A DNA stretch of 64,000 nt from an uncultured Bacilli bacterium (GTDB taxonomy: Bacteria; Bacillota_I; Bacilli_A; RF39; UBA660), in contig CAKOTU010000002.1 of the NCBI GenBank assembly GCA_934120265.1, positions 40,905 through 104,904 on the forward strand, in the 5' to 3' direction. Position numbers and translations under genes: made by a program. How positions within the stretch are numbered: the stretch's first letter is position 1; each line of letters begins with the position of its first letter. Below the pieces are notes generated by a model, which made no database searches, was not told where the DNA came from, and saw only the letters and a program-made list of their open reading frames with translations. Of this stretch, positions 7,521-61,723 are shown in pieces.

Positions 7521-8168
7521 ATGGAATACGAAAATAAAGAAATATGTGCTGCTTGTGGAGGAATTTGTTGCAAAAAAAGTGGTTGCGATTATTTTACTAC
7601 TGATTTTGACGTTATTAATAAAAACACTATGTTAGAAGTTTTAGAAACAGGAAATGTTTCTATTGTATCTACATTTATTTTTAGCACTTTAGCTGACGGC
7701 AAAAAAACATTAACACCATTTCTATATCTAAGAGCAAGAAACAAAAATAGAGGAATTGTTGACTTGTTTTCTATGAAAACGCAATGTTCTATGTTAACAG
7801 AAAATGGTTGTTCTTACGATTTAGAACATAGACCTGGTGGAGGTGTAAATCTTATACCGGGTAAAGAAGCATGTACACATTTACGTGATCCAAGAAACGA
7901 AATATTAAAATGGAAACAATATCAAGGATTATTACTAAAATTAGTAAAAAGATATACCGGAAAAACTGTTAATACTGTTATTCAAGAAAATGTTGAAGAA
8001 GTGTTTTACCAAATCCTAACTGAACAATTTGATGGAGTACAAAAAGCAGAAATCGAAGATATTAAAAGGGGTATATTAGATTTGATAGAATGTTTCCCTG
8101 AACAATATATGAATGCAGAAAAAAGAGCTGAAAAAGATACTAAAACACTAAACAAAAAATTAGGTTAA
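7521..8168 (+). CDS. Cysteine-cluster hypothetical protein (CxxCxxxCC N-terminus; YkgJ-like Zn/Fe-chelating motif?)
   Basis: Intact 215-aa ORF with RBS tgaggtga. N-terminal CAACGGICCKKSGC plus further conserved Cys/His residues. No confident family assignment. Confidence 0.45.
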   Translation: MEYENKEICAACGGICCKKSGCDYFTTDFDVINKNTMLEVLETGNVSIVSTFIFSTLADGKKTLTPFLYLRARNKNRGIVDLFSMKTQCSMLTENGCSYDLEHRPGGGVNLIPGKEACTHLRDPRNEILKWKQYQGLLLKLVKRYTGKTVNTVIQENVEEVFYQILTEQFDGVQKAEIEDIKRGILDLIECFPEQYMNAEKRAEKDTKTLNKKLG

Positions 8169-8329: not shown

Positions 8330-8462
8330 ATGTCATTGCTGACAACAAATATTTTAACAAGTTTTAAGCGATTTGACAAGAGTTTTTATAAAAAAAGATA
8401 AATTAGTTATATACCTATACACTAATTTATTAGTTCCATACAATAAAACGAGGAGGGATATT

Positions 8463-8900
8463 ATGAATAGTTATAACTTAACCCAAGATTATTATAACTA
8501 TGTTAATAATAATTACAATCAACCTTTGTATAATCAAAATGTAGAAAAATATAGTGTTTATGATGTATACAACGGCTATATAAGAGGAAATATGTTTCCT
8601 GCTTTATACAATTTTTATAGGACAGATAAACCTTATGAAATAACTCCAATGAATGAACAAGCGGAGCTTCTTACATATGTAGATATGTATACTTTTGCGA
8701 TGACTGATTTAAATCTTTATTTAGATGTTCATCCTGATGATAAGGAAGCATTACAACTTTTTAATGAATATCGCAAACAAGCTATAGAAGCTACTAAAAA
8801 TTACGAAAATAAATATGGACCTTTACAATTAACTAGCAACTCACTTAATACATTCCCTTGGGCTTGGGATAATGAACCATGGCCTTGGGATAAGAAATAG
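8463..8900 (+). CDS. cotJB: Spore coat protein CotJB with N-terminal CotJA-like region (apparent CotJA-CotJB fusion)
   Basis: C-terminal half matches CotJB (LLTYVDMYTFAMTDLNLYLDVHPDDKEALQLFNEYRKQ...KYGPL). N-terminal Y/N-rich part has a CotJA-like G.MFPALY..Y motif. Strong RBS aggaggg before the ATG at 8463. The long 8373 start is in the track but has no RBS. Confidence 0.6.
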   Translation: MNSYNLTQDYYNYVNNNYNQPLYNQNVEKYSVYDVYNGYIRGNMFPALYNFYRTDKPYEITPMNEQAELLTYVDMYTFAMTDLNLYLDVHPDDKEALQLFNEYRKQAIEATKNYENKYGPLQLTSNSLNTFPWAWDNEPWPWDKK

Positions 8901-8910
8901 GAGGGATAAT

Positions 8911-9468
8911 ATGTGGATTTATGAGAAGAAATTAGAATATCCTGTCAATATTCGCAGAAAAGATTTAAAAATGGCTAAAAATTTGCTATCGCAATATGGA
9001 GGTAGTACTGGTGAATTAGGCGCAGCTTTAAGATATTTAAATCAAAGATATACTATGCCTGATGAAAGAGGCAAAGCTCTTCTTACTGACATTGGAACAG
9101 AGGAACTTGCTCACATCGAAATGATTGCGGCCATGATAACACAATTAGTTAATGGTGCTACAGTGGAAGAATTAACTGCTGCTGGATTAGATGCACAGTT
9201 TGCGCAACATGATCATGGAATATTTCCAGCAGACGCTTTCGGTGTTCCATTTACTGCTGCTTACATAGAAACAACAGGAGATTATATTGCTGATATTGAA
9301 TCAGATATGGCTGCCGAACAAAGAGCTAGAGCAACATATGAACATTTAATGGATTTAACCAACGATCCTGATTTACTAGCGCCTTTAGCATTCCTACGTC
9401 AAAGAGAAGTTATTCACTATCAACGATTTAAAGAATTAAGAAATTACTACCTTGAAAAGAAAATATAA
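8911..9468 (+). CDS. cotJC: Spore coat protein CotJC (manganese-catalase-like ferritin fold)
   Basis: Starts MWIYEKKLEYP, essentially identical in pattern to B. subtilis CotJC MWVYEKKLQYP. Di-metal ligand motifs EELAHIEM and EHL present. RBS taggaggg 6 nt upstream. Overlaps the cotJB stop. Confidence 0.85.
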   Translation: MWIYEKKLEYPVNIRRKDLKMAKNLLSQYGGSTGELGAALRYLNQRYTMPDERGKALLTDIGTEELAHIEMIAAMITQLVNGATVEELTAAGLDAQFAQHDHGIFPADAFGVPFTAAYIETTGDYIADIESDMAAEQRARATYEHLMDLTNDPDLLAPLAFLRQREVIHYQRFKELRNYYLEKKI

Positions 9469-9524: not shown

Positions 9525-10217
9525 ATGAAAAAGATACTCATTCTAATACTACTATTTTTTATTACAGGATGTAGTAGTAAATTAAATATCAATAACGAAA
9601 TAAACAGTATTAAATATAACGATAATAATATTTACTATCAAGATTATGATACTATTATAAATGATTTAAATAGTATAAAGTGGAATTGTGATAGAAAAGA
9701 TAATAATTATAATGAATCTAATTTAATAATAAATACTAAAGATAGTATTATGAATTTTTACTTTTCTAATAACTATTATATGGAATATAAAAATAATAAT
9801 AAGTACTGCTACACAAAAAATAAAAAAGTTGTTAAAAAGATTAAAGATACCTTAGACAATTTAATTAATAAATATAAAAATACTGATTTTATAAAGTTAG
9901 AATTAATTGATAATTTTGATTATGAAGAAAATGATACGATTATAAAGCTAGATAAAAGTGATAGTTACTTAGTCTTAGATATACTTGATGATGTTTACAA
10001 TTTTAAAATACATCAAATAGAAAGAAATAATGATGCAATTCAAGAGATAGATTTGGTATATGATAACGAACTTATAAATAAGAAAATACTTATTAGAATT
10101 GATAAAAAGAATATAAGTAATTATAAAATCAATTTTAAAAATAAGTATAATTATGATTTTGAAATATTTTTAAATTACAATGAAAATATATTTTCATACG
10201 AAATTAAACAAAAATAA
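9525..10217 (+). CDS. Lipoprotein of unknown function (N/K/Y-rich)
   Basis: Signal peptide plus lipobox MKKILILILLFFITGC. 230 aa, low-complexity. Immediately downstream of the cotJ operon. Confidence 0.5.
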   Translation: MKKILILILLFFITGCSSKLNINNEINSIKYNDNNIYYQDYDTIINDLNSIKWNCDRKDNNYNESNLIINTKDSIMNFYFSNNYYMEYKNNNKYCYTKNKKVVKKIKDTLDNLINKYKNTDFIKLELIDNFDYEENDTIIKLDKSDSYLVLDILDDVYNFKIHQIERNNDAIQEIDLVYDNELINKKILIRIDKKNISNYKINFKNKYNYDFEIFLNYNENIFSYEIKQK

Positions 10218-14178: not shown

Positions 14179-14781
14179 ATGAAAAAGATATTAGTATTAT
14201 GTTTTAGTTTTTTTATAGGAATGAATATCTGCTTAGCTAGTGATAAAATCGAAGTAACTTTTGCCAGTTGTGTAGATGGTGATACAGCTAAAGTTAATTT
14301 AAATGGAGAAACAATTAAAATTAGATTTCTTGCTATTGATACTCCTGAGACTAAACATCCTACAAAGGGCGTTGAACCTTTTGGTAAAGAAGCTAGCGAA
14401 TATACTTGTTCTAAACTTACAAATGCAAAAAAGATAGAAATTGAATATGATGAAAATAGTGATAAAAAGGATAAGTATGATCGTGATTTGGTTTGGGTTT
14501 GGGTTGACGATTACCTACTTCAAGACGAATTAATAAAAGAAGGGTTTGCTGAAGTCGCATATCTCTATGGAGATTATAAATATACAGGAACTTTAGAAGA
14601 TCATCAAAGTATCAGCAAAGCTAATAAAGTTGGAATTTGGGGAGATTATAGGGAAGAACCTAAAAATTATTTAATGATAGGGCTTACAGTGTTAGGGGCT
14701 GGAGTTTTACTTTTTACTGGAAAACTTACTAAGTCCAAAGCAAAAAAAATAAAAAAACAATTAAAAAAATATGGTGCATAG
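14179..14781 (+). CDS. Thermonuclease (staphylococcal nuclease-like) with lipoprotein signal and C-terminal hydrophobic anchor
   Basis: SNase motifs (IRFLAIDTPETKHP, DRDLVWVWV). N-terminal signal ending ICLASD (lipobox-like LASC absent, so a Sec signal). C-terminal hydrophobic segment plus a K-rich tail. Confidence 0.75.
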   Translation: MKKILVLCFSFFIGMNICLASDKIEVTFASCVDGDTAKVNLNGETIKIRFLAIDTPETKHPTKGVEPFGKEASEYTCSKLTNAKKIEIEYDENSDKKDKYDRDLVWVWVDDYLLQDELIKEGFAEVAYLYGDYKYTGTLEDHQSISKANKVGIWGDYREEPKNYLMIGLTVLGAGVLLFTGKLTKSKAKKIKKQLKKYGA

Positions 14782-16726: not shown

Positions 16727-17743
16727 TTATCTTATTATTAATTTGTTTATGTTATCTAACATCATCCCTGCACCTTCAACAACACAAGTTAAAGGGCTTT
16801 CAGCAATAAACACTGGCACTTTTAATTCATGTGATAATAAATCACTAAATCCCCTAATTAAAGCACCTCCACCAGTAATAACAATTCCTTTATCAATAAT
16901 ATCGGCCGATAATTCTGGTGGTGTTTTTTCTAAAACACTTTTAGCCGTGTGTATAATTGTATCTATACTATCTTTTAATGCTTCCTCTACTTCTTTAGAA
17001 GTAATAGATATTGTACTAGGTAAACCAGATACCATATCTCTACCTCTAACTTGCATTTTTTCTTTTTCATCAGCCTTGTATACATTACCTATTGTAATCT
17101 TTATTTCTTCAGCTGTTCTATCTCCAATTAGTAATTTATATTTATCTTTTATATATTTTACAATATCTGTATCAAAAGTATTTCCGGCTGTTTTAATTGA
17201 TGCACTAGTAACTATCCCACCTAAAGATAATACTGCAATATCCGTAGTTCCGCCACCAATATCAATAACCATATTTCCTCCAGGTTTTGATATATCAAGT
17301 CCGGCACCTATAGCTGCTACTTTAGGTTCTTCTTCTAAAAATACTCTCTTAGCCCCAGTTCTTTCAGCCGCCTCTTTGATTGCATTCTTTTCAACACCAG
17401 TTATATTTGATGGACAACAAATTAGTATTCGTGGTCTTGTAAATACACTTTTACCATTTATTTTTTTTATAAAATAATTAAGCATTGTTTCTGTTACATC
17501 AAAATCAGCAATTACACCATCTTTCATAGGTCTAATAGCAATTACCGTTCCTGGAGTTCTACCCAACATTTCCCTAGCTTCACTTCCAACAGCTAATGGT
17601 TTCCTTGTTTCAGCATCTAATGCTACAACACTTGGTTCATTTAGGACTATACCTTGTCCTTTAATATATACTAAAACATTAGCTGTTCCTAAATCTATTC
17701 CTATATCTTTTGCAAACATTTGAACATTCACTTTCCTTTTCAA
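16727..17743 (-). CDS. mbl: Rod-shape-determining actin homolog MreB/Mbl
   Basis: DIGIDLGTANVLVY, GGGTTDIAVLS, actin-fold phosphate motifs. Sits immediately downstream of spoIIID, as B. subtilis mbl does. Confidence 0.9.
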   Translation of the reverse strand: MKRKVNVQMFAKDIGIDLGTANVLVYIKGQGIVLNEPSVVALDAETRKPLAVGSEAREMLGRTPGTVIAIRPMKDGVIADFDVTETMLNYFIKKINGKSVFTRPRILICCPSNITGVEKNAIKEAAERTGAKRVFLEEEPKVAAIGAGLDISKPGGNMVIDIGGGTTDIAVLSLGGIVTSASIKTAGNTFDTDIVKYIKDKYKLLIGDRTAEEIKITIGNVYKADEKEKMQVRGRDMVSGLPSTISITSKEVEEALKDSIDTIIHTAKSVLEKTPPELSADIIDKGIVITGGGALIRGFSDLLSHELKVPVFIAESPLTCVVEGAGMMLDNINKLIIR

Positions 17744-18740: not shown

Positions 18741-19655
18741 TTAAATTTTTTCAATTTGAATATTTTGATAATAATATTTTAATATTTCATCATATTTATA
18801 ACCTTTTTTTGCCATTGCTAAAGCTCCATATTGACTCATTCCTACTCCATGGCCATATCCTTTAGTATTGATAACAACGTTACTGCCAATTTGATTTATT
18901 TCAAAAAAAGTTGAACGTAAATTTAAATTTTTATATACCTCACTACCCGTAAATTTTTTATTATTTATTTTAATATTCTTTATTCTACCGGTACTAGTAG
19001 TATTTAAAACTTCTACTTTAATTTTATCAGAATATTTTAAATTTAAGCGTTCATAAAATTCCTGCAAACTGTATTCTTTTGAATCGTTAAATACAGGAGA
19101 TACTTCTTCATCCCATGTTGAATCTACACTTCTAAGATATGGCAGAGCTTGTTTAAAAACATCTTCACTATTTTCTGTCTTTCCTACACTTGTAGAAAAA
19201 AAGAAAGCTTCTATTACTTTTCCATTATAAGATAAGTATTCACCTTTAGTTTCTAATACCGCTGTTTTTACTTTATTAATTCGTTCCTGATATTTATCTT
19301 TCCATTTATCTTGTAGTTCTTGATCGCTAATATATACTTGATTTTGAACTGTATCTACAATATCATAATCTTCATTTTTATTATCACTCATTTTTTTCAT
19401 TACATAAGTTCTTGCTGCTACAGCTTGGGCTTTTAGTGCTTCTAATTCAAAATTTACTGGCATTTCCCCTGCTAATACACCAACAACATAATCTTCAAAA
19501 GGAACCACTTCTACTGTGTTAGTTTCTTCTCTTTTTACTCTAACATTCATTCCTTCAGTATAGTAAAATTTTATATCATCAGTCTTGATAAATAAACTTA
19601 CGATAATATAAGGAATGAAAATAATAATTAAAATGACTAAGATAATTTTTTTCAT
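18741..19655 (-). CDS. spoIID: Stage II sporulation protein D (lytic transglycosylase, SpoIID/LytB family)
   Basis: SpoIID signature (EDYVVGVLAGEMP, EALKAQAVAARTY, HGVGMSQYGA). N-terminal TM anchor. Confidence 0.85.
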   Translation of the reverse strand: MKKIILVILIIIFIPYIIVSLFIKTDDIKFYYTEGMNVRVKREETNTVEVVPFEDYVVGVLAGEMPVNFELEALKAQAVAARTYVMKKMSDNKNEDYDIVDTVQNQVYISDQELQDKWKDKYQERINKVKTAVLETKGEYLSYNGKVIEAFFFSTSVGKTENSEDVFKQALPYLRSVDSTWDEEVSPVFNDSKEYSLQEFYERLNLKYSDKIKVEVLNTTSTGRIKNIKINNKKFTGSEVYKNLNLRSTFFEINQIGSNVVINTKGYGHGVGMSQYGALAMAKKGYKYDEILKYYYQNIQIEKI

Positions 19656-24896: not shown

Positions 24897-26138
24897 CTAT
24901 TTAAATTTATCAATAATTTTATGTAGGCAATATTTACCAGGACTTGTAACTAAATCAAAATCGCCTATATATTCAACTACAGTACCACCAAAGCCTTTTT
25001 TAAATGTATAAACTCCAAACCTATCATCATCTTTACTAAAATTACCATTAATGCCGTAAAAATTATGAAGCTTATAATCTTTTTTTATTCCATATTGAAT
25101 GATATGCCACTGCAACAAATATTGAGATTTTAATGTCATAAATTCACTTTTAGTACCACTGTACAAGTAAACACTTTCATCTCCATAAAGCATAAACATT
25201 GCACCAGCCATCATTAATGTTTTTCCATATTTTAACTTTTGTTCTTGAGCCTCTTTTATTCTTGATTCAAGTACTTCTATTTGACTTGAAAATTCGGCTT
25301 TTCTTGCCTTAGTAGAAACAGAATCACTCAACTTATCTTTCTTTTTAATGATTTCTGTTTTTTCTTTACTTAACTCCTCAATATATTGATCAACATCTAG
25401 TTCTGTAACTAAAAATTTAACTTGCTCTTTTGGATGAAAAAGATTATACATTTTTTGATAGTACTCTGTTTTTCTACTATGAAAATTTTTTCTGCTACCG
25501 CTACTTTCTACTATCTCTGTAAATTTTTCTAATTCATCATAAGCTAGCTCTCTAACGCTAACGCCATTTTTTAAATTTTTTCTTATAGTATTTCTGGTAT
25601 TTGGCTTAAATTTACTAAATACCTCCTCCTCTGTTTGATTTGAGATATCAAGTACAAAAGCCCATCTGACCTGCTTATTTAAATCCAAATGTTCATAAAA
25701 GCCACCATGTTTATATCCAAGATTAATCAAATTATCATATATATCAGAATTATCAAAGCCATTTGGTACTAAATTACCATCTATATCTCTTTCTTTATAA
25801 TAAATTTTTGGTTCTATTTTTAAAACATATCCGCCCTTACTTTTTACATATTTTTTAATTTTCTTAGTAAAAAACTCTAATAAGTCTTTGTTTCTAAAAT
25901 CTATCAAATAACCTCTTGGAGCATTAAAAAACTTACCCATTCTACCATTATATGATATCATCATAGTTGCGCATATTATCTCATTATTTTCCTTTACACC
26001 AACAAAGTATTTTTCCCAACCATCCATAACCTTCAGTTCACCCATCTCTGGTGTTTGTAAATATGATCTTAAGGGATGATTATCTGCAAAACTTCTAAAT
26101 TCTTCTTGAGTTAACTCAACAAATTTCATTATTATCAC
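24897..26138 (-). CDS. FemAB-family aminoacyl-tRNA-dependent peptidoglycan cross-bridge transferase
   Basis: 413 aa. GNAT-like Fem halves separated by the coiled-coil insertion typical of FemA/FemB/FmhB (KEKTEIIKKKDKLSDSVSTKARKAEF...). C-terminal FKKGFGG motif. Confidence 0.8.
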   Translation of the reverse strand: MIIMKFVELTQEEFRSFADNHPLRSYLQTPEMGELKVMDGWEKYFVGVKENNEIICATMMISYNGRMGKFFNAPRGYLIDFRNKDLLEFFTKKIKKYVKSKGGYVLKIEPKIYYKERDIDGNLVPNGFDNSDIYDNLINLGYKHGGFYEHLDLNKQVRWAFVLDISNQTEEEVFSKFKPNTRNTIRKNLKNGVSVRELAYDELEKFTEIVESSGSRKNFHSRKTEYYQKMYNLFHPKEQVKFLVTELDVDQYIEELSKEKTEIIKKKDKLSDSVSTKARKAEFSSQIEVLESRIKEAQEQKLKYGKTLMMAGAMFMLYGDESVYLYSGTKSEFMTLKSQYLLQWHIIQYGIKKDYKLHNFYGINGNFSKDDDRFGVYTFKKGFGGTVVEYIGDFDLVTSPGKYCLHKIIDKFK

Positions 26139-26229: not shown

Positions 26230-27423
26230 ATGTATAGAAACACTTATTTAGAAATAAATTTAGATAATATTAAAAAAAATACGCATAATTTATTACAAAA
26301 ATACAATGACTACGATTATTATTTTGGTGTCGTAAAAGGTAATGCCTACGGTCATGGATTTTACATTATTAATACATTAATAGAAGCAGGTATAAATTAT
26401 TTAGCTGTCTCAAATTTAGATGAAGCTCTAAAGATTAGAAAAATTAATAAGGAAATACCAATTTTATGCTTAGAGCCTATCAATTTAAAATGGTTAGAAA
26501 TTTGTTCTAAAGAAAATATAACTATAACTGTTTCTTCCTTAGATTATGTCAAAAAAATTAATGAGTTTCAAAATAGTATTAAAATACACATTAAAATTGA
26601 TAGTGGAATGAATAGATTAGGTTTTGATAACAAGAAAGATTTGGAAGAAGCTATTAATTTAATAAAGGAAAATAGTAATCTCTACCTTGAAGGAATTTAT
26701 ACTCATATGGGTACACTTGGAATAAATGATCCTTATAGAAAAAAGCAACTAACAAGTTTCGAAGATATAACAAGTAATATCAATCTTGCAGAGTTTAAAA
26801 TTGTTCATATTGACAGAAGCGTTACTGCAATGTGTAACAAAAAAATAGATTACTGCAACGGGGTTAGAATGGGAATATCTCTTTACGGTTACAATCAATT
26901 ACCTATTATAAATAACACTTTAAAAGATAAACTTAGAAATATAAAAAGATGGTTGCAAAGAAAAAAATATCATATTGAAAATTATGAATTCGATAGAAAT
27001 ATAGATTTAACCCCTGCATTAAGTTTATATAGTGAAGTTATAGAAATTAAAACTGTTCATAATGGAGAGTTTGTTGGGTATTTTGGCTATCTACACCAAG
27101 GAGAGGATATTACTGTTGCAACCGTTTGCATCGGGTATGCAGATGGACTAGATTTAAAATCAAATGGAGCGTATGTTTCAATAAAAAACAAAAAGTATAA
27201 AATAATTGGAACTATAAACATGGGAATGATTTCTGTAGTAGTTGATAAAAATATTATGGTTGGAGATAAAGTGGCTATAATAAGTAATGACAATGGTATT
27301 AGAGAGTTAAGCAGCTGCAATGAAACTACAATATATAAAACGATGACATGCTTATCACCACTACTCCCAAGGGTATATATTAAAAATAATAAAGTAGAAA
27401 AAATTGAGGAGATGTCTTTATGA
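26230..27423 (+). CDS. alr: Alanine-racemase-family PLP enzyme (fold type III)
   Basis: Start MYRNTYLEINLDNIKKN matches the Alr N-terminus. PLP-lysine motif VVKGNAYGHG. RBS agaggatga. C-terminal beta domain present. Confidence 0.8.
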   Translation: MYRNTYLEINLDNIKKNTHNLLQKYNDYDYYFGVVKGNAYGHGFYIINTLIEAGINYLAVSNLDEALKIRKINKEIPILCLEPINLKWLEICSKENITITVSSLDYVKKINEFQNSIKIHIKIDSGMNRLGFDNKKDLEEAINLIKENSNLYLEGIYTHMGTLGINDPYRKKQLTSFEDITSNINLAEFKIVHIDRSVTAMCNKKIDYCNGVRMGISLYGYNQLPIINNTLKDKLRNIKRWLQRKKYHIENYEFDRNIDLTPALSLYSEVIEIKTVHNGEFVGYFGYLHQGEDITVATVCIGYADGLDLKSNGAYVSIKNKKYKIIGTINMGMISVVVDKNIMVGDKVAIISNDNGIRELSSCNETTIYKTMTCLSPLLPRVYIKNNKVEKIEEMSL

Positions 27424-28643
27424 AATTTAAAACTTTAATAATTGGTTCTGATATTAATGCCTATTATATGGCACGTTGCTATCACGAAGAATATAATGAT
27501 AAAGCTCATTTAATCGCTAAAGAACCTATGAATTTCACAAATTTAAGTACTATACTAACAATAGAATATCATCATAATCTTTGGGAAAAAGAGGCTTTCT
27601 TAGAAGCTGTTAATGATTACGCTGAGAAGTATAAAGATTATAAAATTCTTATTATACCGAGCAATGATTTCTATGTAAGATTAATCGTTGAAAATAAAAA
27701 AAATTTAAGAAAAAATCTCGTTTTCCATGATTTAGACATAGATTTACTAAATAATCTTTTAATAAAAGATAACTTTTACAGTTTTTTCAAAGATTCAGGA
27801 TTAGAATTCCCAAAAACATACATATATGATTGTTCATTAAAAAATAAATTAACCAAAGAAAATATAAAAGATTTCAAATTTCCAATAATTATTAAACCGG
27901 GAGATGGAGTTGCTTATTATAAGGCAAAGTTTGAGGGACAATCCAAGGTATATAAGGTTAATAGTTTAAAAGAAATCCAAGATATTATTTCAAAAATAAC
28001 AAATGCAGGATATAAAAAGAAGCTCATTATACAAGAGTTTATTCCTGGAGGAGATGATAAACTTTTTGATTCTATATTCTATAGTAACAAAAATCATAAG
28101 GCTGAATTAGCATCTTTTGCTCAAATTGGTCTTCAAGAACATACCCATACTGGTATCGGAAACTGTACCGTTTTAGTTAATGGTTTTTGTGAATTTGGCA
28201 ATTATGAAAATGAAATTTATAAAATGAAAGAGTTTTTAGAGAATAACAATTATTGTGGTTTTGCCGAATTCGATTTAAAATATGATGAAAGAGATAAAAA
28301 GTTTAAAGTTTTTGAAATAAACCCACGTCAAGCAAGAAGTAGTTACTACTTATGTGCCTGTGGATACAATCTAGTTAAATACTTAGTAGATGATTTAATT
28401 AAAAACGAACAAAAAGACTTTGTTATCATAAAGAAAGAGTATGCGCTTAGCTTTGTTCCTACATTTGTTATAAAAAAATATATAAAAAATGATAAACTTA
28501 AAAAAGAAGTATTAAAATTAAAGAAAAGCAAAAATTTTGTAGATCCTCTAAACTATAAACAAGATAAAAATTTAAAAAGAAAAGCTTGGTTATTTATAAG
28601 AAAAATTAATTATATAAAAAAATATAAAAATAATCAGTGGTAA
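27420..28643 (+). CDS. ATP-grasp carboxylate-amine ligase of unknown specificity (D-amino-acid/peptidoglycan branch ligase candidate)
   Basis: ATP-grasp core (FPIIIKPGDGVAYYKAKF, LIIQEFIPGGDD, EFDLKYD...FKVFEINPR). Start ATG overlaps the alr stop (ATGA), implying translational coupling. Confidence 0.7.
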   Translation: MKFKTLIIGSDINAYYMARCYHEEYNDKAHLIAKEPMNFTNLSTILTIEYHHNLWEKEAFLEAVNDYAEKYKDYKILIIPSNDFYVRLIVENKKNLRKNLVFHDLDIDLLNNLLIKDNFYSFFKDSGLEFPKTYIYDCSLKNKLTKENIKDFKFPIIIKPGDGVAYYKAKFEGQSKVYKVNSLKEIQDIISKITNAGYKKKLIIQEFIPGGDDKLFDSIFYSNKNHKAELASFAQIGLQEHTHTGIGNCTVLVNGFCEFGNYENEIYKMKEFLENNNYCGFAEFDLKYDERDKKFKVFEINPRQARSSYYLCACGYNLVKYLVDDLIKNEQKDFVIIKKEYALSFVPTFVIKKYIKNDKLKKEVLKLKKSKNFVDPLNYKQDKNLKRKAWLFIRKINYIKKYKNNQW

Positions 28644-31719: not shown

Positions 31720-32298
31720 TTATATATACTTATCAACAATTTCCTTTAAAAAAGATTTATATTCTACGTCTGTACTTTCCTCTGCTTCTAACATACATAA
31801 AGGAGGAAATAAAACACACCACCAATTATTTCCTTTTCCTTCACCAATAGTAATAACTAAAGACTCGTAATATCCTTCATCATAAGTTATTCCCTTGAAT
31901 TCCTTTTCCGGAAAGTAATTTAATCCAAAATTAACCACGTAATTAAGTTTATAATTATTTCTATTAAATACATTGGTCACTTTATTGCTTATGTTATCTA
32001 AATTAGTAGAAATAATAGCTCTAGATTCATCAATATTATCAACGTTTTGTAAAATAGAAGCCATATATGATTCTACTTCATCTTTTACTTTATATTTTAC
32101 ATCTTGATCTTGTGTGCTATTGCTATTGGCTATTACTCTAAATCTAATTGCTTCATCTGGTATCTTTATTATTTCCTCACTTGCCACTCCAATTATATAA
32201 TAAATTAAAAATATTGTTATTAAAATAAATATTGTTTTTTTCATAAAAAGATTGTCCTTTCTATTTAATAGTGGACAATCTTTTTGATATTTATTCAA
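31720..32298 (-). CDS. spoIIR: Stage II sporulation protein R
   Basis: Signal/TM N-terminus and the SpoIIR hallmark C-terminal motif NWWCVLFPPLC. 192 aa. Confidence 0.8.
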   Translation of the reverse strand: MNKYQKDCPLLNRKDNLFMKKTIFILITIFLIYYIIGVASEEIIKIPDEAIRFRVIANSNSTQDQDVKYKVKDEVESYMASILQNVDNIDESRAIISTNLDNISNKVTNVFNRNNYKLNYVVNFGLNYFPEKEFKGITYDEGYYESLVITIGEGKGNNWWCVLFPPLCMLEAEESTDVEYKSFLKEIVDKYI

Positions 32299-42640: not shown

Positions 42641-43885
42641 CTACTTCTTATGCACTTTAAATACAACTTGATACATATCTTCTAAATCAAATTCTTCTGT
42701 ATCTACTATAAAACCATATTTTTCAATAGTTTTTTCACATTCCCTAAATGCATCAATAACCATCTTAAGATTTCCTGATTCTACTGCAGAATTTGAAGAC
42801 ACTACTGAATTACTTATTGTACTATTTTCTGAATCCGAATTAAAAATAGAATCATCAAATTTAGGAATACCAAAATTTGGAGATATAGTGAAATCTTTGT
42901 TAATTGGTTCTTCATTTGGAACAAATGTGTTATTAAATTCATAATCAGTAGGATTTACATCTTGTTGAGTATTTTCAGGTTCAAAAGGAGCGGTAAAGAA
43001 ACTACTTTGTTTTGATTCTGAAATTTGATCTGAACTACTTGGTTTTAATAAATCACTAAATCTAGGAAGTTCCTCTTTTGATTCTGATTCCGTATTTAAA
43101 AATGGATTTATTATAGAATCAATATCTGTTTGTGGTAAATCTGTTGACGGTTCGATAATAGGATTACTTGGAATATTTAAATTTGATGGTACTTCTTCTG
43201 ATGGATCTGCTGGAATGATAATAGGTTCATCAAAATTTAATACTTCAACATCATTTTGCATAGTTTTATCTTCTTTTACTCCGTTTAGCATTTTATTTAT
43301 TTCCTCATCTGTCTTTCTAACAGTTAATCTTTCTGTTATTATTTTATCTAATAATTTTACTTGATCTTCTTTATTTGATAGTTTTAATAAAGAACGTGCA
43401 TGTCTTTCTGATATTTTACCATTTAGTAGAGCTTCTTGAACATCTTCATCCAAATTTAATAATCTTAATTTATTAGCTATAGCAGATTGACTTTTTCCTA
43501 TTTTCTCTGCTAAATTTTCTTGATTTAAATATCCCATATCTAGAATTTTTTTATAAGATATAGCTTCTTCTATTGGTGTTAAATCTTGGCGTTGAACATT
43601 TTCAATTAATGCAACTTCAGCACTTTCCTTATCATTTAAATTTATAATAATAGCAGGAATTGTTGGAAGACCTGCTAAAGTTGTTGCTTTAAATCTTCTC
43701 TCACCAGCTATAATTTCATATCTATCACCAACAGGTCTTACGACAATTGGTTGTATAACACCATGTTCTTTTATTGATTCAGATAGTTCATTAATTGCAT
43801 CTTCACTAAATTTTATTCTTGGTTGAAATCTATTAGGTAAAACATCTTCTAAAGGAAGTTCTACCACTTTTCTATTATTATCCAT
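42641..43885 (-). CDS. noc: Noc-type ParB paralog (nucleoid occlusion protein-like) with ~170-aa disordered insertion
   Basis: ParB N-domain (LPNRFQPR, GERRFKA). HTH-domain specificity segment KISERHARSLL matches Noc ITERHARAL, not Spo0J LSMGHGRTL. C-terminal FIVDTEEFDLEDMYQVVFKV resembles the Noc dimerisation tail. Immediately downstream of rsmG as noc is in Bacillus. 414 aa versus ~283 aa for typical Noc. Confidence 0.75.
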   Translation of the reverse strand: MDNNRKVVELPLEDVLPNRFQPRIKFSEDAINELSESIKEHGVIQPIVVRPVGDRYEIIAGERRFKATTLAGLPTIPAIIINLNDKESAEVALIENVQRQDLTPIEEAISYKKILDMGYLNQENLAEKIGKSQSAIANKLRLLNLDEDVQEALLNGKISERHARSLLKLSNKEDQVKLLDKIITERLTVRKTDEEINKMLNGVKEDKTMQNDVEVLNFDEPIIIPADPSEEVPSNLNIPSNPIIEPSTDLPQTDIDSIINPFLNTESESKEELPRFSDLLKPSSSDQISESKQSSFFTAPFEPENTQQDVNPTDYEFNNTFVPNEEPINKDFTISPNFGIPKFDDSIFNSDSENSTISNSVVSSNSAVESGNLKMVIDAFRECEKTIEKYGFIVDTEEFDLEDMYQVVFKVHKK

Positions 43886-43974: not shown

Positions 43975-44679
43975 CTATAAAGGCTTATTTTTTATTTCTT
44001 TTGGATTACGTGGATATCGTTTTGATGTTGGTTTTTGTTTTGTTATTAATAATAAAGTACGATTACTATCTTCTTTTGGTAGTAAAAATTCATCACTTTT
44101 TAACAACATCCCATCTATCTTTTTTAGAGAACTATCTAATAAGTTTATTTCCCGGGAAATATTTCCTTTCATAGGAATAAAATATTTCCCAACTTTTGCT
44201 AATGGTAAACAATACTCTATCAAAATATTTATTGGTGCTACTGCACGGGCTGTTACAACATCATATTTTTCACGGTTATTTTTAGCAAAATCTTCTGCTC
44301 TGTCATGAACTAATTCTATATCTTTTAAAACTAACTGTTTTACCACTTCATTTAAAAATGTTATACGTTTTTGTAATGAATCAACCAAAGTTATCTTTAA
44401 ATCAGGATAAACTATCTTTAAAACTATTCCTGGAAATCCTGCACCACTACCTATATCACATAGTGTACTTTCTTTTTTTAAATCTATTATTCTAGCAATT
44501 GTTAGACTATCATAAAAATGTTTCAAATATACTTCTTTTTCTTCGGTTATGCCAGTTAAATTCATAACTTTATTCCATTCAACTAAAAGTTGATAATATT
44601 GATTTAGTTGTTCTAATTGTTTGTCTGTAAGTTGAATATTTAAATTTTTTAAAGCCTCTATAAATTCAGTTTTATCCAC
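43975..44679 (-). CDS. rsmG: 16S rRNA (guanine527-N7)-methyltransferase RsmG (GidB)
   Basis: SAM-binding motif DIGSGAGFPG, N-terminus EQLNQYYQLLVEWNKVMNLT. 234 aa. Confidence 0.9.
   Translation of the reverse strand: MDKTEFIEALKNLNIQLTDKQLEQLNQYYQLLVEWNKVMNLTGITEEKEVYLKHFYDSLTIARIIDLKKESTLCDIGSGAGFPGIVLKIVYPDLKITLVDSLQKRITFLNEVVKQLVLKDIELVHDRAEDFAKNNREKYDVVTARAVAPINILIEYCLPLAKVGKYFIPMKGNISREINLLDSSLKKIDGMLLKSDEFLLPKEDSNRTLLLITKQKPTSKRYPRNPKEIKNKPL
44147..44160. promoter_or_regulatory. Noc-binding site (NBS), exact consensus ATTTCCCGGGAAAT, inside rsmG
   Basis: Perfect 14-bp palindrome identical to the B. subtilis NBS consensus. Adjacent to the noc-like gene. Confidence 0.6.
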
Positions 44680-50105: not shown

Positions 50106-50305
50106 TTTTCCACACAGTATTTTTCTTTAATTTATAATATATAACGTTATTTTCCACAGTAGATGTGGAAAACTTACTAACATGTGATTTGATATGTTAA
50201 TTATTTTTCCACAATGGGTGTTGAAAATGTAATTATTCTTTTAAAAATAATGTCGTTTGGTGTGGAAAATTGTGTTAATTTGTCGAATTTTAATATTTTT
50301 CCACA
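50106..50305. promoter_or_regulatory. oriC DnaA-box cluster upstream of dnaA (6 boxes)
   Basis: TTTTCCACA at 50106, 50150, 50205, 50297 and TGTGGAAAA at 50164, 50261. One-mismatch variants of TTATCCACA, in both orientations within 200 bp. Confidence 0.8.
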
Positions 50306-51726: not shown

Positions 51727-51870
51727 TGGTGGAAAAACAAATTTAAACAACATTTTTTCCACAATATAAAATTACTGTTTGTCCTTGAAAATAAAAGAAA
51801 AATGATAGTTTTATACATTTTACACACTAATAATAAAAATAACTATTATAAAAATAAAAATTATAGGGAG
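51727..51870. promoter_or_regulatory. dnaA-dnaN intergenic oriC segment: DnaA-box-like inverted pair plus AT-rich unwinding-element candidate
   Basis: gtggaaaaa (51729) and TTTTCCACA (51755-51763) form an inverted pair. Then ~90 nt that are >85% A/T. In Bacillus-type origins the DUE lies between dnaA and dnaN. Confidence 0.45.
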
Positions 51871-53138: not shown

Positions 53139-53588
53139 ATGTTAGAAAATTATGAAATAAATAGTGGTACATTAGCTGTTATACCAATAGATGAGTATAC
53201 ATCAAAAGTTATTGAGTTGGATAATGAGTATATTGTTAATAAACCATGTTTTGAAATAATTGATGATAGTTGTAATTATTATGGTAGTACATATCAAGGT
53301 AGATATGAAGGAACAAAAAATATGATAGGAATGAATTATAAATTACCAATCATAATAGAAGAGAGCAAAAATATAATATTTTTTCCTACAACATCTCCAA
53401 GACTAATTAATTGTTCTTGGGTTTCCTTAAATAATTTAAAAACTTATTTAAGAAATAATGAGGGATCTGATATAGTATTTAAAAATGATAGTATAGTTAA
53501 TTTTAGTATTTCAATTTTTTCATTAGAAAGTCAAATTTTACGTGCATCAAGATTGGAATCAATTTTAAGAAGTAGAAAAAATCAATAA
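53139..53588 (+). CDS. ComK-family protein (short, 149 aa) in the position usually occupied by yaaA
   Basis: YEINSGTLAVIPIDE...CFEIIDDSCNYYGSTYQGRYEGTK...LPIIIEESKNIIFFPTTSPR...CSWVSLNNLK aligns to B. subtilis ComK (YEVNGATIAVLPEE...SCRFFGSSYAGRKAGT...PPIMVDPSNQIFLFPTLSS...CGWISHVHVK). RBS gagggagg. Confidence 0.7.
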   Translation: MLENYEINSGTLAVIPIDEYTSKVIELDNEYIVNKPCFEIIDDSCNYYGSTYQGRYEGTKNMIGMNYKLPIIIEESKNIIFFPTTSPRLINCSWVSLNNLKTYLRNNEGSDIVFKNDSIVNFSISIFSLESQILRASRLESILRSRKNQ

Positions 53589-56781: not shown

Positions 56782-59241
56782 ATGGATCATAGTAGAGATA
56801 GATTAGAAGAAAATAACATAGTAGAAGAGGTAAAATCATCATTTTTAGAGTATTCTATGAGTGTAATAGTATCACGTGCTTTACCAGATTTACGTGATGG
56901 TTTAAAGCCAGTTCATCGTAGAATTTTATGGTCAATGTATGAATCTGGATATACACCAGATAAACCTCATAAAAAATCAGCTCGTATAGTTGGAGATGTA
57001 ATGGGAAAATATCACCCACATGGAGATTCTTCAATATATGAAGCAATGGTAAGAATGGCTCAAGACTTTAATTATCGTCATATGTTAGTAGATGGGCATG
57101 GTAACTTTGGTAATATTGAGGGTTATGGTGCAGCAGCAATGCGTTATACCGAATCTAGATTATCAAAAATATCATTGGAATTATTAAGAGATATTAATAA
57201 AGATACTGTTAATTTTATTCCAAACTTTGATGAATCTGAAAAAGAACCATCAATTTTACCATCAAGATTTCCAAATATATTAGTTAATGGAACAATGGGT
57301 ATTGCTGTAGGTATGGCAACTAATATTCCACCACATAACTTGGGAGAAGTAATAGATGGATGTATTGCTTATATTGATAATCCGGATATTGATACTTTAG
57401 GTTTGATGGAATATATAAAAGGACCAGATTTTCCTACTGGGGGCATAATTTTAGGTAATAGCGGTATTAAAAAGGCCTATGAAACAGGTCGTGGTACTAT
57501 TACTATAAGAAGTAAGGCTACTATAGAAGAAAAAGATGGTAAAAATTATATAGTAATTGATGAAGTTCCATATGGTGTTAACACAATGGAATTAAAAAAC
57601 AAAGTTGCAGAATTAGTACATAATAAAACAATAGATGGTATTTCTGATTATCATACTGACTTAAAAGATGGTATTAAAATAACTATTACATTAAAAAGAG
57701 ATGCAAATCCACAAGTTGTTTTAAATAATTTATATAAACATACTCAATTTCAAACAAATTATGGAATTATATTCTTGATGCTTGATAATGGTGTACCAAA
57801 AACGCTTGGACTTAAAGATATCATAACTAAATATATTGATTATCAAAAAGAAATTATTATAAGACGAACAAGATTTGATTTGAATAAATGTGAAGCGAGA
57901 GTTCATATTTTAGAAGGTTTAAAAGTAGCTCTAGATAATATTGATGAAGTTATTAAGATAATTAAAGCTTCAAAGACAGATGACATAGCTAAAGAACAGT
58001 TAATGTCTAAATTTCCTTTAGATGAAATTCAATGTGAAGCTATTTTGGAAATGAAGTTAAGAAGATTAACTGGTCTAGAAAAAGATAAGATTGAAAATGA
58101 ATTAAATGATTTATTAGAACGTATTAAGGAATTAAAAGCAATTTTAGGCTCTGAACAAAAAGTTTTAGATATAATTAAGTTAGAATTAACTGAAATTAAA
58201 AACAAATATAGCGATGATAGAAGAACAAAAATTGATATGTCAGCAATAGATTATATAGAAGATGAATCATTAATTCCAGTTGAAGATATTGTAATTACTT
58301 TAACTAACAAAGGATATATCAAACGTGTATTAAGCGATAATTTTAAATCTCAAAATAGAGGTGGAGTCGGAATTAAAGGAATGTCTACAAATGAAGAAGA
58401 CTTTGTACAATATTTACTTTCTATGACAACCCATGATTATATATTATTCTTTACAAATAAGGGAAAAGTATATAGATTAAAGGGCTATGAAATTCCTTTG
58501 TTTAATAGGCAATCAAAGGGAATTCCAATAATTAATTTATTACCAATAGAAAAAGAAGAGGTTGTTAAAGCTATGTTAAAGATAGAAAATAACGACGAAT
58601 CTAAATATATTGTATTTTGTACACAAACTGGTTTAGTTAAGAGAACTAAACTTGAAGAATTTGATAGTATTAGATCAAATGGTAAATTTGCAATAACTCT
58701 AAGAGAAGATGATGAATTACTTGATGTTAAAAAAACTACTGGAGACAACCAAATATTAATTGCATCTTCAAATGGAAGAATGATAAGATTTAAAGAAGAT
58801 GAAATTAGAGTTATGGGTAGAAGTGCTGCTGGTGTTAAAGGAATTGAAGTAGATGATGGCAAAGCAGTAGGATGTGAAGTTTCTGAACCAAATAAAAATG
58901 TATTAATAGTAACAGAAAATGGTTATGGAAAGAAAACTAATATAGATGAATATAGAATGACACATCGTGGTAGTAAAGGTGTAAAAGCATTAAATATAAC
59001 AGAAAAAAACGGTAATATAGTTGCTTTCAGGATGGTTGATGGTGATGAAGATCTAATGATTGTTACTAATTCTGGAATAATTATACGTTTAAATTTAATA
59101 CAAGTATCTAATACAGGTAGAGTAGCTCAAGGTGTAAGATTAATAAATTTAAAAGATAACCAAAAGGTTGGAAATATATCAATATTAAAAAAAGAAGATA
59201 GTGATGAAAGCGAAGATGCTACTGAACAAATAATTGAATAA
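56782..59241 (+). CDS. gyrA: DNA gyrase subunit A
   Basis: Active-site region with YHPHGD (QRDR), AAMRYTE catalytic Tyr, C-terminal beta-pinwheel repeats, acidic tail. Confidence 0.95.
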
Positions 59242-59249: not shown

Positions 59250-59265
59250 TGTTTCACGTGAAACA
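59250..59265. promoter_or_regulatory. parS site 1 (TGTTTCACGTGAAACA, perfect palindrome) embedded in the gyrA terminator hairpin
   Basis: Exact match to the palindromic parS consensus tGTTtCACGTGAAACa. Flanked by aagaa/ttctt extending the stem and followed by tttt. Confidence 0.75.
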
Positions 59266-59283
59266 TTCTTTTTCTATAGGACT

Positions 59284-59297
59284 ATTTCCCGGGAAAT
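59284..59297. promoter_or_regulatory. Noc-binding site (NBS), exact consensus ATTTCCCGGGAAAT
   Basis: Perfect 14-bp palindrome identical to the B. subtilis NBS. Lies between parS1 and parS2. Confidence 0.6.
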
Positions 59298-59320
59298 AAA
59301 TTTTTATAAATTATTATGCA

Positions 59321-59336
59321 TGTTTCACGTGGAACA
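59321..59336. promoter_or_regulatory. parS site 2 (TGTTTCACGTGGAACA)
   Basis: Identical to the reverse complement of the B. subtilis parS consensus TGTTCCACGTGAAACA. Confidence 0.75.
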
Positions 59337-59380
59337 TATATGGTTATTTTTAATTTTATTATAAATTAGATTATATAATG

Positions 59381-59409
59381 TTGAAAAAATGTTAAAAATA
59401 TAATATATT
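59381..59409 (+). promoter_or_regulatory. Sigma-A-type promoter for the SRP RNA gene
   Basis: TTGAAA (59381-59386), 17-nt spacer, TATATT (59404-59409). Predicted start ~59415 coincides with the 5' arm of the SRP RNA helix. Confidence 0.45.
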
Positions 59410-59413
59410 ATTA

Positions 59414-59490
59414 GTGCACAACATTTATGTTTGAACCAGGTCAGAATTGGAAAATAGCAGCCTTAAGATCCTCTAAATGTGTGTGCTTTT
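59414..59490 (+). ncRNA. ffs: Signal recognition particle RNA, short (4.5S-like) form
   Basis: Single long hairpin (gtgcacaacattta...taaatgtgtgtgc) enclosing the conserved domain IV motif CCAGGTCAGAATTGGAAAATAGCAGCC (compare AGGUCAGGUCCGGAAGGAAGCAGCC). Followed by a ttttttt terminator. Conserved position upstream of tadA-dnaX as scr is in Bacillus. Confidence 0.6.
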
Positions 59491-59497
59491 TTTATGA

Positions 59498-59513
59498 TGT
59501 TTCACGTGAAACG
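59498..59513. promoter_or_regulatory. parS site 3 (TGTTTCACGTGAAACG, 1 mismatch)
   Basis: 15/16 match to the palindromic parS. Directly after the SRP RNA terminator. Confidence 0.65.
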
Positions 59514-59530
59514 TTGTAAAAATAAAATTA

Positions 59531-59546
59531 TGTTTCACGTGAAACA
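59531..59546. promoter_or_regulatory. parS site 4 (TGTTTCACGTGAAACA, perfect)
   Basis: Exact palindromic parS, 19 nt upstream of the tadA start. Confidence 0.75.
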
Positions 59547-59564
59547 TTGTAAGGGTGATAAAAA

Positions 59565-59984
59565 ATGAATGATTTTATGAATTTAGCTTTAAAACAGGCG
59601 TTAAAGGCATATAAAAAACAAGAAGTACCCATAGGTACTGTTATTGTTAAGAATGGAAAAATAGTATCCAAAGCTTATAATAAAAAAGAAAATAAAAAAA
59701 TGACTACTAAACATGCTGAAATTATAGCTATAGAAAAAGCGTGTAAAAAATTAAAAACATGGCATTTAGATGGATGTGAAATATATACAACGATGGAGCC
59801 CTGCTTAATGTGCTATGGTGCAATAGAACAATCGCGAATAAGAAAGATTAATTATGGATTAAAAAATATGAATTTCGGATTTAAAAGCAAATATAATATA
59901 GAATCAAAGTTAGAAATTTGTGAATGTAAAATATCAGATGAATATATTGACTGTATAAAATCTTTTTTTAAAGAAAAGAGGTAA
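59565..59984 (+). CDS. tadA: tRNA-specific adenosine deaminase
   Basis: CDA fold motifs HAE and PCLMC. 139 aa. RBS aagggtga. Confidence 0.85.
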   Translation: MNDFMNLALKQALKAYKKQEVPIGTVIVKNGKIVSKAYNKKENKKMTTKHAEIIAIEKACKKLKTWHLDGCEIYTTMEPCLMCYGAIEQSRIRKINYGLKNMNFGFKSKYNIESKLEICECKISDEYIDCIKSFFKEKR

Positions 59985-60037
59985 AATAATTAAAAAATAA
60001 TATTCAAAATGATATAATAAAACAAGAGGTGATTAAT

Positions 60038-61723
60038 ATGTATCAAGCATTATATAGAAAATATAGACCTATAGATTTTTCTGATGTAGTTGGTCAAGAT
60101 ATAATAGTGAAAACGCTATTAAACTCTTTAAAACTTGGTAATATAAATCACGCTTATTTGTTTACAGGCCCTAGAGGAACTGGTAAAACAAGTATAGCAA
60201 AGATATTAGCAAAATCAGTTAATTGTGAAAACTTAATCGATGGTGTTGCTTGTAATAAGTGCGTAAATTGTACACAAAATATTAATAAAAATCATGTTGA
60301 TGTTATAGAAATAGATGCTGCTTCAAACAATGGGGTAGACGAAATAAGAGAATTACGTAATAAAGTTAATCTAGTACCATCTTTAGGCAAGTATAAAATA
60401 TACATAATTGATGAGGTTCATATGCTTACTACAGGGGCTTTTAATGCTTTATTAAAAACATTAGAAGAACCACCTAAACATGCTATTTTTATATTAGCAA
60501 CGACTGAACCTCAAAAAATACCACTAACTATATTATCAAGGTGTCAACGCTTTGACTTTAAAAAGATAAGCAATAACTATATTTTTAAAAGGTTAAAAGA
60601 TATTTGTGATAAAGAAAATATTAAAATAACAGAAGATAGTATAAGGGAAATAGCAAGATTAGCTGATGGTGGAATGAGAGATTCTTTAAGTATCCTTGAT
60701 CAAGTTTCATCATTTACACAAAATGAAATAACAGTAGAGGATGTTCATTTAATTAACGGAACACTAACACAAGAAGAGTTATCTAAATTTGCAGTAGAAA
60801 TTTTAAATAAAAATGTATATGAAGTATTAAAAAAAATCGATAATTTTGATGAAAATGGTAAAAATTTCACCAAAATATTGGAAGAATTAATCTTATTCTT
60901 CAAAAATGTATTGATAGTTGAAGAAGCTCCCCAATATTTGATTGATACGAATTATGATATTGAAATATATAAAAGTATGGCTGGAATATTATCAAAATTA
61001 GAATTAATCGATATAATAGATACGATGAACCAAAATTTATCTATTATAAAAAAAGGTACAGTACAGAGATTACAATTTGAATTATTGATTTTAAAACTGC
61101 TTAATTATGATAAAGTACAAAATAAACAAGAAAAAATAAATACACCAAAAGTAGATACAAAAATAGATATAAAAGTAAAACCAATAGAAAATAAAAAGGA
61201 ATTAAAATCGGAAGATAATGCTTCAAATAAAATTGATAATTCATTTGTACAAATTAATCAAGAAATAAAAGAAAAATTAAAACAGATAAAAGAAATAAGA
61301 ATAAATAATACTCTAGCAAATTTTAATAAAAAAGAACTAACAAAAGTAAAATCATTAGAAGATGATTTAAAACCACTTTTAATAAATTTAGATTACAGTA
61401 AATATGTATCTATTATTTTAGACGGTAATTTAAAGGCAGCAAGTGAAGATTATCTTATTTACGTATTTAATACAGAAACTGATAGTGACTTATTTAATGA
61501 GAATATTTTAAAAATAGAAGAAATTATTGCTAAGGTTTTTAAACATAACTACAAAGTTATTTCGACAGATAATATTTCCTGGGAAATAATTAAGAAAGAA
61601 TTTAATTCCCATATCAAACAGTATACATATGTTGAGGAAACAGAAAATATAAGTAAAATATTAAAAAATGAAAATAAAAATGAAATAGAAAATTTATTTA
61701 GTGATGCAATAAACTATAATTAG
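60038..61723 (+). CDS. dnaX: DNA polymerase III subunits gamma/tau
   Basis: MYQALYRKYRP start (RBS agaggtga), Walker A GPRGTGKTS, zinc module CNKCVNC, SRC motif. The 3-codon-longer GTG start sits inside the RBS. Confidence 0.9.
   Translation: MYQALYRKYRPIDFSDVVGQDIIVKTLLNSLKLGNINHAYLFTGPRGTGKTSIAKILAKSVNCENLIDGVACNKCVNCTQNINKNHVDVIEIDAASNNGVDEIRELRNKVNLVPSLGKYKIYIIDEVHMLTTGAFNALLKTLEEPPKHAIFILATTEPQKIPLTILSRCQRFDFKKISNNYIFKRLKDICDKENIKITEDSIREIARLADGGMRDSLSILDQVSSFTQNEITVEDVHLINGTLTQEELSKFAVEILNKNVYEVLKKIDNFDENGKNFTKILEELILFFKNVLIVEEAPQYLIDTNYDIEIYKSMAGILSKLELIDIIDTMNQNLSIIKKGTVQRLQFELLILKLLNYDKVQNKQEKINTPKVDTKIDIKVKPIENKKELKSEDNASNKIDNSFVQINQEIKEKLKQIKEIRINNTLANFNKKELTKVKSLEDDLKPLLINLDYSKYVSIILDGNLKAASEDYLIYVFNTETDSDLFNENILKIEEIIAKVFKHNYKVISTDNISWEIIKKEFNSHIKQYTYVEETENISKILKNENKNEIENLFSDAINYN
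61574..61587. promoter_or_regulatory. NBS-like site ATTTCCTGGGAAAT (1 mismatch) inside dnaX
   Basis: 13/14 match to the NBS consensus. The central CCCGGG is degenerate to CCTGGG. Confidence 0.3.

Follow-up and report, generated by a model that had tools for sequence, protein, structure and literature searches.

This analysis concerns a compact group of parS sites, the 16-bp palindromes at which the partition protein ParB loads, in an uncultured Bacilli bacterium (contig CAKOTU010000002.1), of which a stretch of 64 kb, hereafter the window, was studied. The sites lie in the gap between gyrA (56782-59241, plus strand), the left border of the cluster, and a tadA-type deaminase gene (59565-59984, plus strand), which is its right border in this genome. 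The first site, parS1 (59250-59265), is the perfect 16-bp palindrome TGTTTCACGTGAAACA, with no mismatches; parS2 (59321-59336) reads TGTTTCACGTGGAACA, and its minus strand is the consensus-identical TGTTCCACGTGAAACA, also with no mismatches; parS3 (59498-59513), TGTTTCACGTGAAACG, agrees at 15 of 16 positions, the mismatch being the terminal G; and parS4 (59531-59546), again a perfect palindrome, follows parS3 by 33 bp and precedes the start codon of tadA by 18 bp. The same gap contains ffs, the gene of the bacterial small signal recognition particle (SRP) RNA (59406-59502, plus strand; Rfam RF00169, 55.4 bits with a gathering score of 40), with parS1 and parS2 before it and parS3 and parS4 after it. 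The spacings are 71, 177 and 33 bp, the four sites falling within 297 bp; parS3 and parS4 belong to a direct repeat of about 30 nt, and a loose four-copy repeat family of about 31 nt carries the parS sites of the window. Between parS1 and parS2, 17 bp after parS1, there is a further perfect palindrome, TATTTCCCGGGAAATA (59283-59298), which is the binding site of the ParB-family protein Noc (Noc-binding site, NBS) and differs from parS solely at positions 1 and 6 of each half-site (PMC7383237). A first-pass annotation, made from the sequence alone, had reported four parS sites around the SRP RNA gene in the gyrA-tadA gap, and its coordinates are exact; the parS sites are real, and the perfect NBS had been overlooked.

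The position of the cluster a few kb from oriC, also proposed in that annotation, is borne out: six TTTTCCACA DnaA boxes are grouped at 50106-50305, upstream of dnaA, and a further box is found at 51755, so that the parS cluster lies 7.5-9 kb from oriC. When the window was searched for TGTTNCACGTGAAACA with two or fewer mismatches, matches were obtained solely at 59250, 59321, 59498 and 59531. These correspond to 8 strand-matches, a number not attained in any of 100 shuffles, whereas 0.06 are expected by chance. With three mismatches allowed, one extra site appears at 42441, at chance level.

The arrangement is shared by the relatives of this bacterium. In particular, 80 species-level genomes were retrieved by GyrA (74-99 % identical), all of which are metagenome-assembled genomes of uncultured gut or rumen bacteria labelled Bacilli, Tenericutes or Mollicutes. 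parS is found downstream of gyrA in 78 of them, at about 0-2 kb (in one genome at 3.3 kb), and the two genomes without parS have just 122 and 524 bp of sequence downstream of gyrA. The conserved order is gyrA, parS/NBS, ffs, parS, tadA, parS and dnaX. In the 1.53 Mb sampled, 309 pure parS palindromes are located in the gyrA-dnaX zone and none elsewhere, and the loci on the noc side (191 kb) contain no parS. The 66 genomes in which this zone is fully covered have from 1 to 12 parS each (median 4), in clusters with a median span of about 500 bp and a maximum of 2.1 kb; the densest relatives carry up to 12 sites in about 1.65 kb. Furthermore, a metagenome scan for an NBS lying 6-36 bp from a parS matched at least 120 contigs; among the 120 listed, 116 share the gyrA/ffs/tadA/dnaX context, and all clusters span 2.4 kb or less. 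Two metagenome contigs (L204 and L149), which might have represented another lineage with this arrangement, join a low-GC parS/NBS-tadA-dnaX segment to Bacteroidota-like outer-membrane genes, with an overall GC content of 38-48 %, and were set aside as probably chimeric assemblies.

Among related sites, the per-position information does not extend beyond the 16-mer and one flanking base, with about 0 bits left no more than 1-3 nt away; the sole wobble, at parS position 5/12, coincides with the N in the canonical consensus. Selection thus bears on the site itself, not on the surrounding repeat; it is strong and site-specific, and it holds the sites at a single fixed address near the origin. The earlier proposal of genuine parS sites in a tight, origin-proximal intergenic cluster is supported by the chance statistics and by conservation in the lineage: no further parS-like palindromes occur in the window or in the ±10 kb regions of the 80 related genomes, which retain the cluster at the same gyrA-tadA-dnaX address.

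Within this fixed address, copies of parS arise by tandem duplication and are lost by decay, also within species. At least 30 genomes contain tandem arrays with parS in the repeated unit, the units being 31-409 bp long and present in as many as about 11 copies (39 bp x 7, 53 bp x 10.8 and 126 bp x 8.7 are examples), and in two genomes parS and NBS are co-duplicated in one unit (97 bp in L085 and 235 bp in L071). In L007, a genome of the same species as the window, parS2 has decayed and parS3 is perfect. The process extends to coding DNA: the dnaX coding sequence of L077 includes a 48-bp (16-aa) tandem repeat (14376-14490), each unit of which, read as N-V-S/P-R-E-T, is an in-frame parS, indicating that centromere copies have spread into a protein-coding linker. 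Judged by position, parS copies lie in dnaX in L062 and L064 as well.

The NBS follow a different distribution. The same 1.53 Mb of relatives contains 82 pure NBS, 57 in the gyrA-dnaX zone, where they are about 10-fold enriched, and 25 elsewhere; they are present within the zone in 26 of the 66 fully covered genomes, and about half of the zone NBS are 24-49 bp from a parS. Several of the 25 perfect NBS outside the cluster, all in origin-proximal DNA, are intragenic at conserved positions. Hybrid combinations of parS and NBS half-sites are absent from the 1.53 Mb, in which only the pure forms occur, and parS and NBS behave like two separate classes of sites for protein binding. The window itself has two additional NBS, one with a single mismatch (61573-61588) inside dnaX (60029-61723, plus strand), and a perfect one (44146-44161) inside rsmG, at its 3' end and about 260 bp upstream of the gene of a Noc-type protein. 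The latter site, coded as I-S-R-E-I (ATT TCC CGG GAA ATA), is conserved in several subclades (L001-L006, L089, L213) and could be a self-nucleation or autoregulatory site; its codons look GC-rich for a 27 % GC genome. Another recurrent NBS, again coded ISREI, is found about 6.4-7.8 kb downstream of gyrA, inside an open reading frame (ORF) of about 278-305 aa, in L008, L017, L025, L027, L039, L042, L045, L047, L066, L069, L075, L076 and L080; this position falls past the right end of the window.

The sole ParB-family gene of the window (42641-43885, minus strand) encodes a protein of 414 aa with ParB_N and HTH_ParB domains and is of the Noc type. It is located directly after rsmG (gidB), both in the window and at the loci of four divergent orthologs. 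Its best NCBIfam model is nucleoid_noc (TIGR04285), with 291 bits, which does not reach the curated cutoff of 315, and its closest solved structures are those of Noc (220 and 191 bits, in comparison with 182 or less for Spo0J/ParB). The GERRxKA motif is present. At the four residues that determine specificity the protein reads Q-K-N-R, where Noc has Q-K-K-R and ParB R-x-x-G, and all of the 120 orthologs retrieved read Q-K-N/K/E-R, with N at position 184 in 112 of them. Mutagenesis and structures have established that Q173 is unable to contact G1 of parS, that R201 reads an NBS-specific base pair, that a single lysine at 179 or 184 is enough for NBS reading, and that extant ParBs invariably carry R173 and G201 (PMC7383237). 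Variants that bind parS are likewise stated to keep an invariant R173 (PMC7383237). The window protein combines Q173 and R201 with at least one lysine at 179 or 184 and, since its residues are Q-K-N-R, it is predicted under these rules to read NBS and not parS.

This protein differs from classical Noc at its N-terminus. A 10-aa amphipathic helix (MKHSFSRFFG in Bacillus subtilis) is needed for membrane binding and nucleoid occlusion (PMC8429893). The window protein begins at the equivalent of Noc residue ~24 and is without this helix, only five in-frame codons precede its start before a stop is met, and this N-terminal helix for membrane targeting is absent in 120 of the 120 orthologs. Because the helix is lacking, a classical role in nucleoid occlusion is improbable, and the paralog is probably not a membrane-tethering factor of that kind. 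A separate feature of the family is a hypervariable, acidic, S/N/P-rich linker, which measures about 170 aa in the window protein and reaches about 290 aa in orthologs, and in which a short motif, PG(K/R)FFN(L/F)xE (with F296/F297 in the window protein), is nearly invariant. This motif resembles the canonical helix core FSRFFGLGE, and could represent either a membrane-binding element that has been relocated or a motif for binding a partner.

Several of the palindromes might also act at the RNA level. The body of the ffs RNA probably extends over ~59414-59487, as a direct reading of its terminal helix (GUGCACA...UGUGUGC) suggests, and is followed by a U-tract to 59494, so that parS3 begins 4 nt past the U-tract. 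A sigma-70-type promoter of ffs is predicted at 59381-59409 on the plus strand (TTGAAA, a 17 nt spacer and TATATT), as a consensus match only. parS1 lies within a 13-bp RNA hairpin (-14.7 kcal/mol, z = -5.1), 2 nt past the gyrA stop codon and followed by UUUUUC, and folding makes it plausible that it serves as the gyrA terminator. If transcribed, parS3 and parS4 would pair in a 26-bp RNA hairpin between ffs and tadA (59488-59560; -30.1 kcal/mol, z = -8), which could terminate ffs or form a leader structure of tadA. Another promoter-like match (TTCACG, a 16 nt spacer and TAAAAT) overlaps parS3 and abuts parS4; the scan returned 9 such matches where 8.4 are expected, which is the chance rate, and we therefore make no claim of promoter overlap.

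Taken together, these observations are best explained if the 300-bp stretch is the chromosomal centromere, read by a canonical ParB that is encoded outside the sampled region, with the Noc-type paralog at the interleaved NBS, and we hold this reading with good, though not full, confidence. A canonical ParB of the R173/G201 type would load at parS as a clamp dependent on cytidine triphosphate (CTP), would spread over the origin region and would recruit the structural maintenance of chromosomes (SMC) complex, in line with the ParB-dependent loading of SMC at origin-proximal parS described in other bacteria (PMC7333895); several adjacent parS would be expected to raise the rate of ParB loading. 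Given that no ParA is seen in the sampled sequence, we propose that the ParB-parS-SMC system may operate without ParA, as in Staphylococcus aureus and Streptococcus pneumoniae, the former having Noc plus ParB without ParA (PMC5540599). The Noc-type paralog encoded next to rsmG would load at NBS in the same place and, since NBS are interleaved with parS, the hub is probably a platform shared by two readers. Moreover, because the palindromes lie in transcribed spacers, parS1 may double as the gyrA terminator hairpin, and parS3/parS4 may form a strong hairpin between ffs and tadA. In this uncultured organism ParB binding and spreading and SMC loading are inferred from sequence, as would be any cooperation between the two clamps and any effect on transcription. 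A stronger form of this reading, in which ParB on parS and the helix-less Noc paralog on NBS act together in the segregation or organisation of the origin as a composite centromere, Noc having been re-purposed from a division inhibitor tethered to the membrane back to a centromere-associated clamp, is less probable than not; its extreme version would do without a canonical ParB.

Several results weigh against this explanation. The first-pass annotation had counted on a canonical ParB/Spo0J gene, and in the sequence sampled none was found. Six-frame phmmer searches, with the Noc-type protein and B. subtilis Soj as queries, detected no ParB or ParA besides the Noc-type gene in the 64 kb of the window, and none within ±10 kb of gyrA in the 80 genomes. 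No parS-type ParB is encoded within ±10 kb of the noc-type gene for the window protein and four divergent orthologs, representing five subclades, and tblastn detected no parS-type ParB or ParA in the 120 metagenome contigs (722 kb). All of this DNA is origin-proximal, and the missing parS-type ParB therefore amounts to absence of evidence. Two further points concern parts of the model. The exact Q-K-N-R variant was not found in the part of the deep-mutational-scan supplement of PMC7383237 available to us, so that strict NBS specificity of this combination is an extrapolation, and a simple consensus terminator scan of the window did not list the parS1 hairpin.

The same negatives are the starting point for a rather improbable alternative, in which the stretch is still a centromere and the lineage has lost canonical ParB, so that either a Noc-type paralog of dual specificity reads both parS and NBS or an unrelated protein reads parS. 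In B. subtilis a parA-parB pair follows noc; here such a pair is absent after the noc-type gene, which is the sole ParB-family gene in the sampled lineage sequence. In addition, the asparagine at position 184, where Noc has a near-invariant lysine, is a lineage-specific deviation, the lack of the membrane helix brings the protein nearer to a ParB-like clamp than to classical Noc, and NBS and parS cluster and duplicate together. Variants of dual specificity do exist in the mutational landscape, but they mostly carry T or S at position 201, where the window protein has R, and Q173 cannot hydrogen-bond G1 of parS (PMC7383237). The confinement of parS to the cluster, with NBS dispersed also in genes, corresponds rather to the classical division between two readers, and parB of S. 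aureus can lie apart from noc (PMC5540599), which matters for a sample restricted to origin-proximal DNA. It is this restriction that leaves some probability to a single reader or a non-canonical system.

Less probable again, in our judgement, is that the palindromes serve first of all as operators, at which ParB or the Noc-type protein would repress or insulate ffs, tadA and dnaX, the centromere role being secondary. The sites do occupy every intergenic gap of the gyrA-ffs-tadA-dnaX run, in 27 of 63 genomes a parS lies 48-66 bp upstream of where the ffs match begins, other parS lie 27-40 bp upstream of tadA, and the intergenic parS3/parS4 of Pseudomonas aeruginosa repress adjacent genes (PMC7022226). 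A fixed operator geometry nevertheless fits poorly with a site number of 1-12 and a spacing of 31-409 bp among close relatives, one site having been lost within the species. Arrays of up to 12 sites and the in-frame copies in dnaX point instead to selection for copy number, the promoter-like match at parS3 and parS4 belongs to a set that occurs at the chance rate, and in B. subtilis the loss of Spo0J leaves the expression of parS-adjacent genes unchanged (PMC7022226). The first-pass annotation had also raised ParB-dependent control of ffs, tadA or dnaX; given the positions of the sites and the P. aeruginosa precedent, such control could be imagined, and we mention it as speculation. Still less credible is that the palindromes are repetitive extragenic palindromic (REP)-like repeats, or terminator or insulator RNA hairpins, that merely resemble parS. 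The stability of the parS1 and parS3-parS4 hairpins and the position of every window site in a transcribed spacer would suit such elements, but not the exact universal 16-bp parS consensus, including its one degenerate position, nor a second palindrome class that is an exact NBS alongside a Noc-type reader. The REP-like or terminator-only reading was rejected on account of the uninformative flanks, the restriction to one locus and the in-frame coding copies; a partition cassette of an integrated plasmid or prophage was likewise rejected, in view of the housekeeping synteny and of the lack of par genes nearby.

In B. subtilis ten parS are scattered over hundreds of kb, mostly inside genes, and spo0J lies beside noc and soj. 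The present system shares with the Spo0J(ParB)-parS system of that organism the consensus TGTTNCACGTGAAACA, including its degenerate position 5, the origin-proximal location and the class Bacilli. Unlike in B. subtilis, all the sites seen here occupy a single fixed address, 0.3-2 kb of noncoding DNA, often as tandem arrays, and neither parA nor parB is found beside the noc-type gene. The CTP-dependent clamp loading and SMC recruitment of the B. subtilis system would be expected here as well (PMC7333895). The first-pass annotation drew a fair contrast with the studied Firmicutes; other phyla, however, are already known to have tight parS clusters in intergenic DNA, one instance being Corynebacterium glutamicum, in which consensus parS are grouped near oriC, nine of ten in intergenic positions, with a single ParB and SMC hub (PMC7083940). 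That organism is an actinobacterium with ParA, and its 10 sites extend over 35 kb at 73 kb from oriC (PMC7083940), whereas here 4 sites in 297 bp lie 7.5-9 kb from oriC, with tandem repeats and interleaved NBS. P. aeruginosa has an origin-proximal cluster of 4 parS, and its parS3/parS4 are, as here, intergenic and just upstream of genes; ParB repression has been demonstrated for them, whereas in our case it is suggested by position (PMC7022226).

The closest parallel for the arrays is sopC of the F plasmid, in which a 43-bp unit is directly repeated 12 times and SopB binds a 16-bp inverted repeat in every unit (PMC3177203). The relatives have similar head-to-tail units of 37-53 bp, present 7-11 times with one 16-bp palindrome each. 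However, sopC is plasmid-borne, has another sequence and is beside its own sopAB operon (PMC3177203), whereas the sites described here are canonical parS in a chromosomal housekeeping context, with no adjacent par genes and, in the window, only loosely repeated. With regard to the Noc-NBS systems of B. subtilis and S. aureus, the NBS is identical, the residues are of the Noc type, the C-terminal domain is Noc-like and the gene is by rsmG (PMC7383237, PMC8429893, PMC5540599), and NBS are dispersed in genes there too; here, instead, the reader has no membrane helix, carries N for K184 and has the hypervariable linker of 170-290 aa, and its sites are enriched about 10-fold in the parS cluster and co-duplicated with parS. 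A non-systematic search of the literature found no earlier report of interleaved parS and NBS. In summary, the canonical site sequences and the existence of tight, mostly intergenic, origin-proximal clusters in other phyla are already known, whereas the extreme density, the lineage-wide fixed address, the fast turnover of copy number, the interleaving and co-duplication of NBS and the helix-less Noc paralog differ from what is known.

A recent review names the variation of parS in number and clustering among the open questions (PMC7333895). In this lineage about 200 natural variants of a single centromere are available at a fixed address, with 1-12 sites, in arrangements ranging from loose clusters to sopC-like arrays, which makes that question approachable by comparative and synthetic work. 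If the composite two-reader centromere were true, the rapid expansion and contraction of the parS(+NBS) arrays would amount to a natural experiment on what determines the site number and clustering of a centromere, and two clamps cooperating there would extend the known roles of ParB-family CTP switches. If instead it were true that no canonical ParB exists, the assumed one-to-one link between parS and ParB would be overturned. On a practical level, the 16-bp sites are a compact marker by which the origin region can be located in the genomes of these uncultured gut and rumen bacteria.

The host has a GC content of 26.7 %, and its window encodes the sporulation proteins CotJB, a CotJC-like Mn catalase, SpoIID and SpoIIR, together with MreB and a full peptidoglycan toolkit (sporulation and wall genes at 8373-9468, 16727-17743, 18741-19655, 24897-26138 and 31720-32298). 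Many relatives have been deposited as 'uncultured Tenericutes/Mollicutes', with chromosomes of about 1.3-1.5 Mb. Together these features suggest a gut bacterium of the class Bacilli that has a wall, probably forms spores and possesses a very small genome. Four ORFs of the window, at 288-2024 (minus strand), 7521-8168, 9525-10217 and 27420-28643 (all plus strand), encoding 578, 215, 230 and 407 aa, lack any Pfam match at E <= 1e-5. At the origin region, rnpA, yidC, jag, mnmE, mnmG, rsmG and the ParB-family gene form the leftward run, and dnaA, dnaN, comK, recF, gyrB, gyrA, the parS cluster, tadA, dnaX and recR the rightward one. All six clustered DnaA boxes are of the variant TTTTCCACA and not TTATCCACA. 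The ComK-family gene (53139-53588, plus strand), between dnaN and recF, is kept in L001, L002 and L089, and the origin operon is an unusual location for a competence regulator such as ComK.

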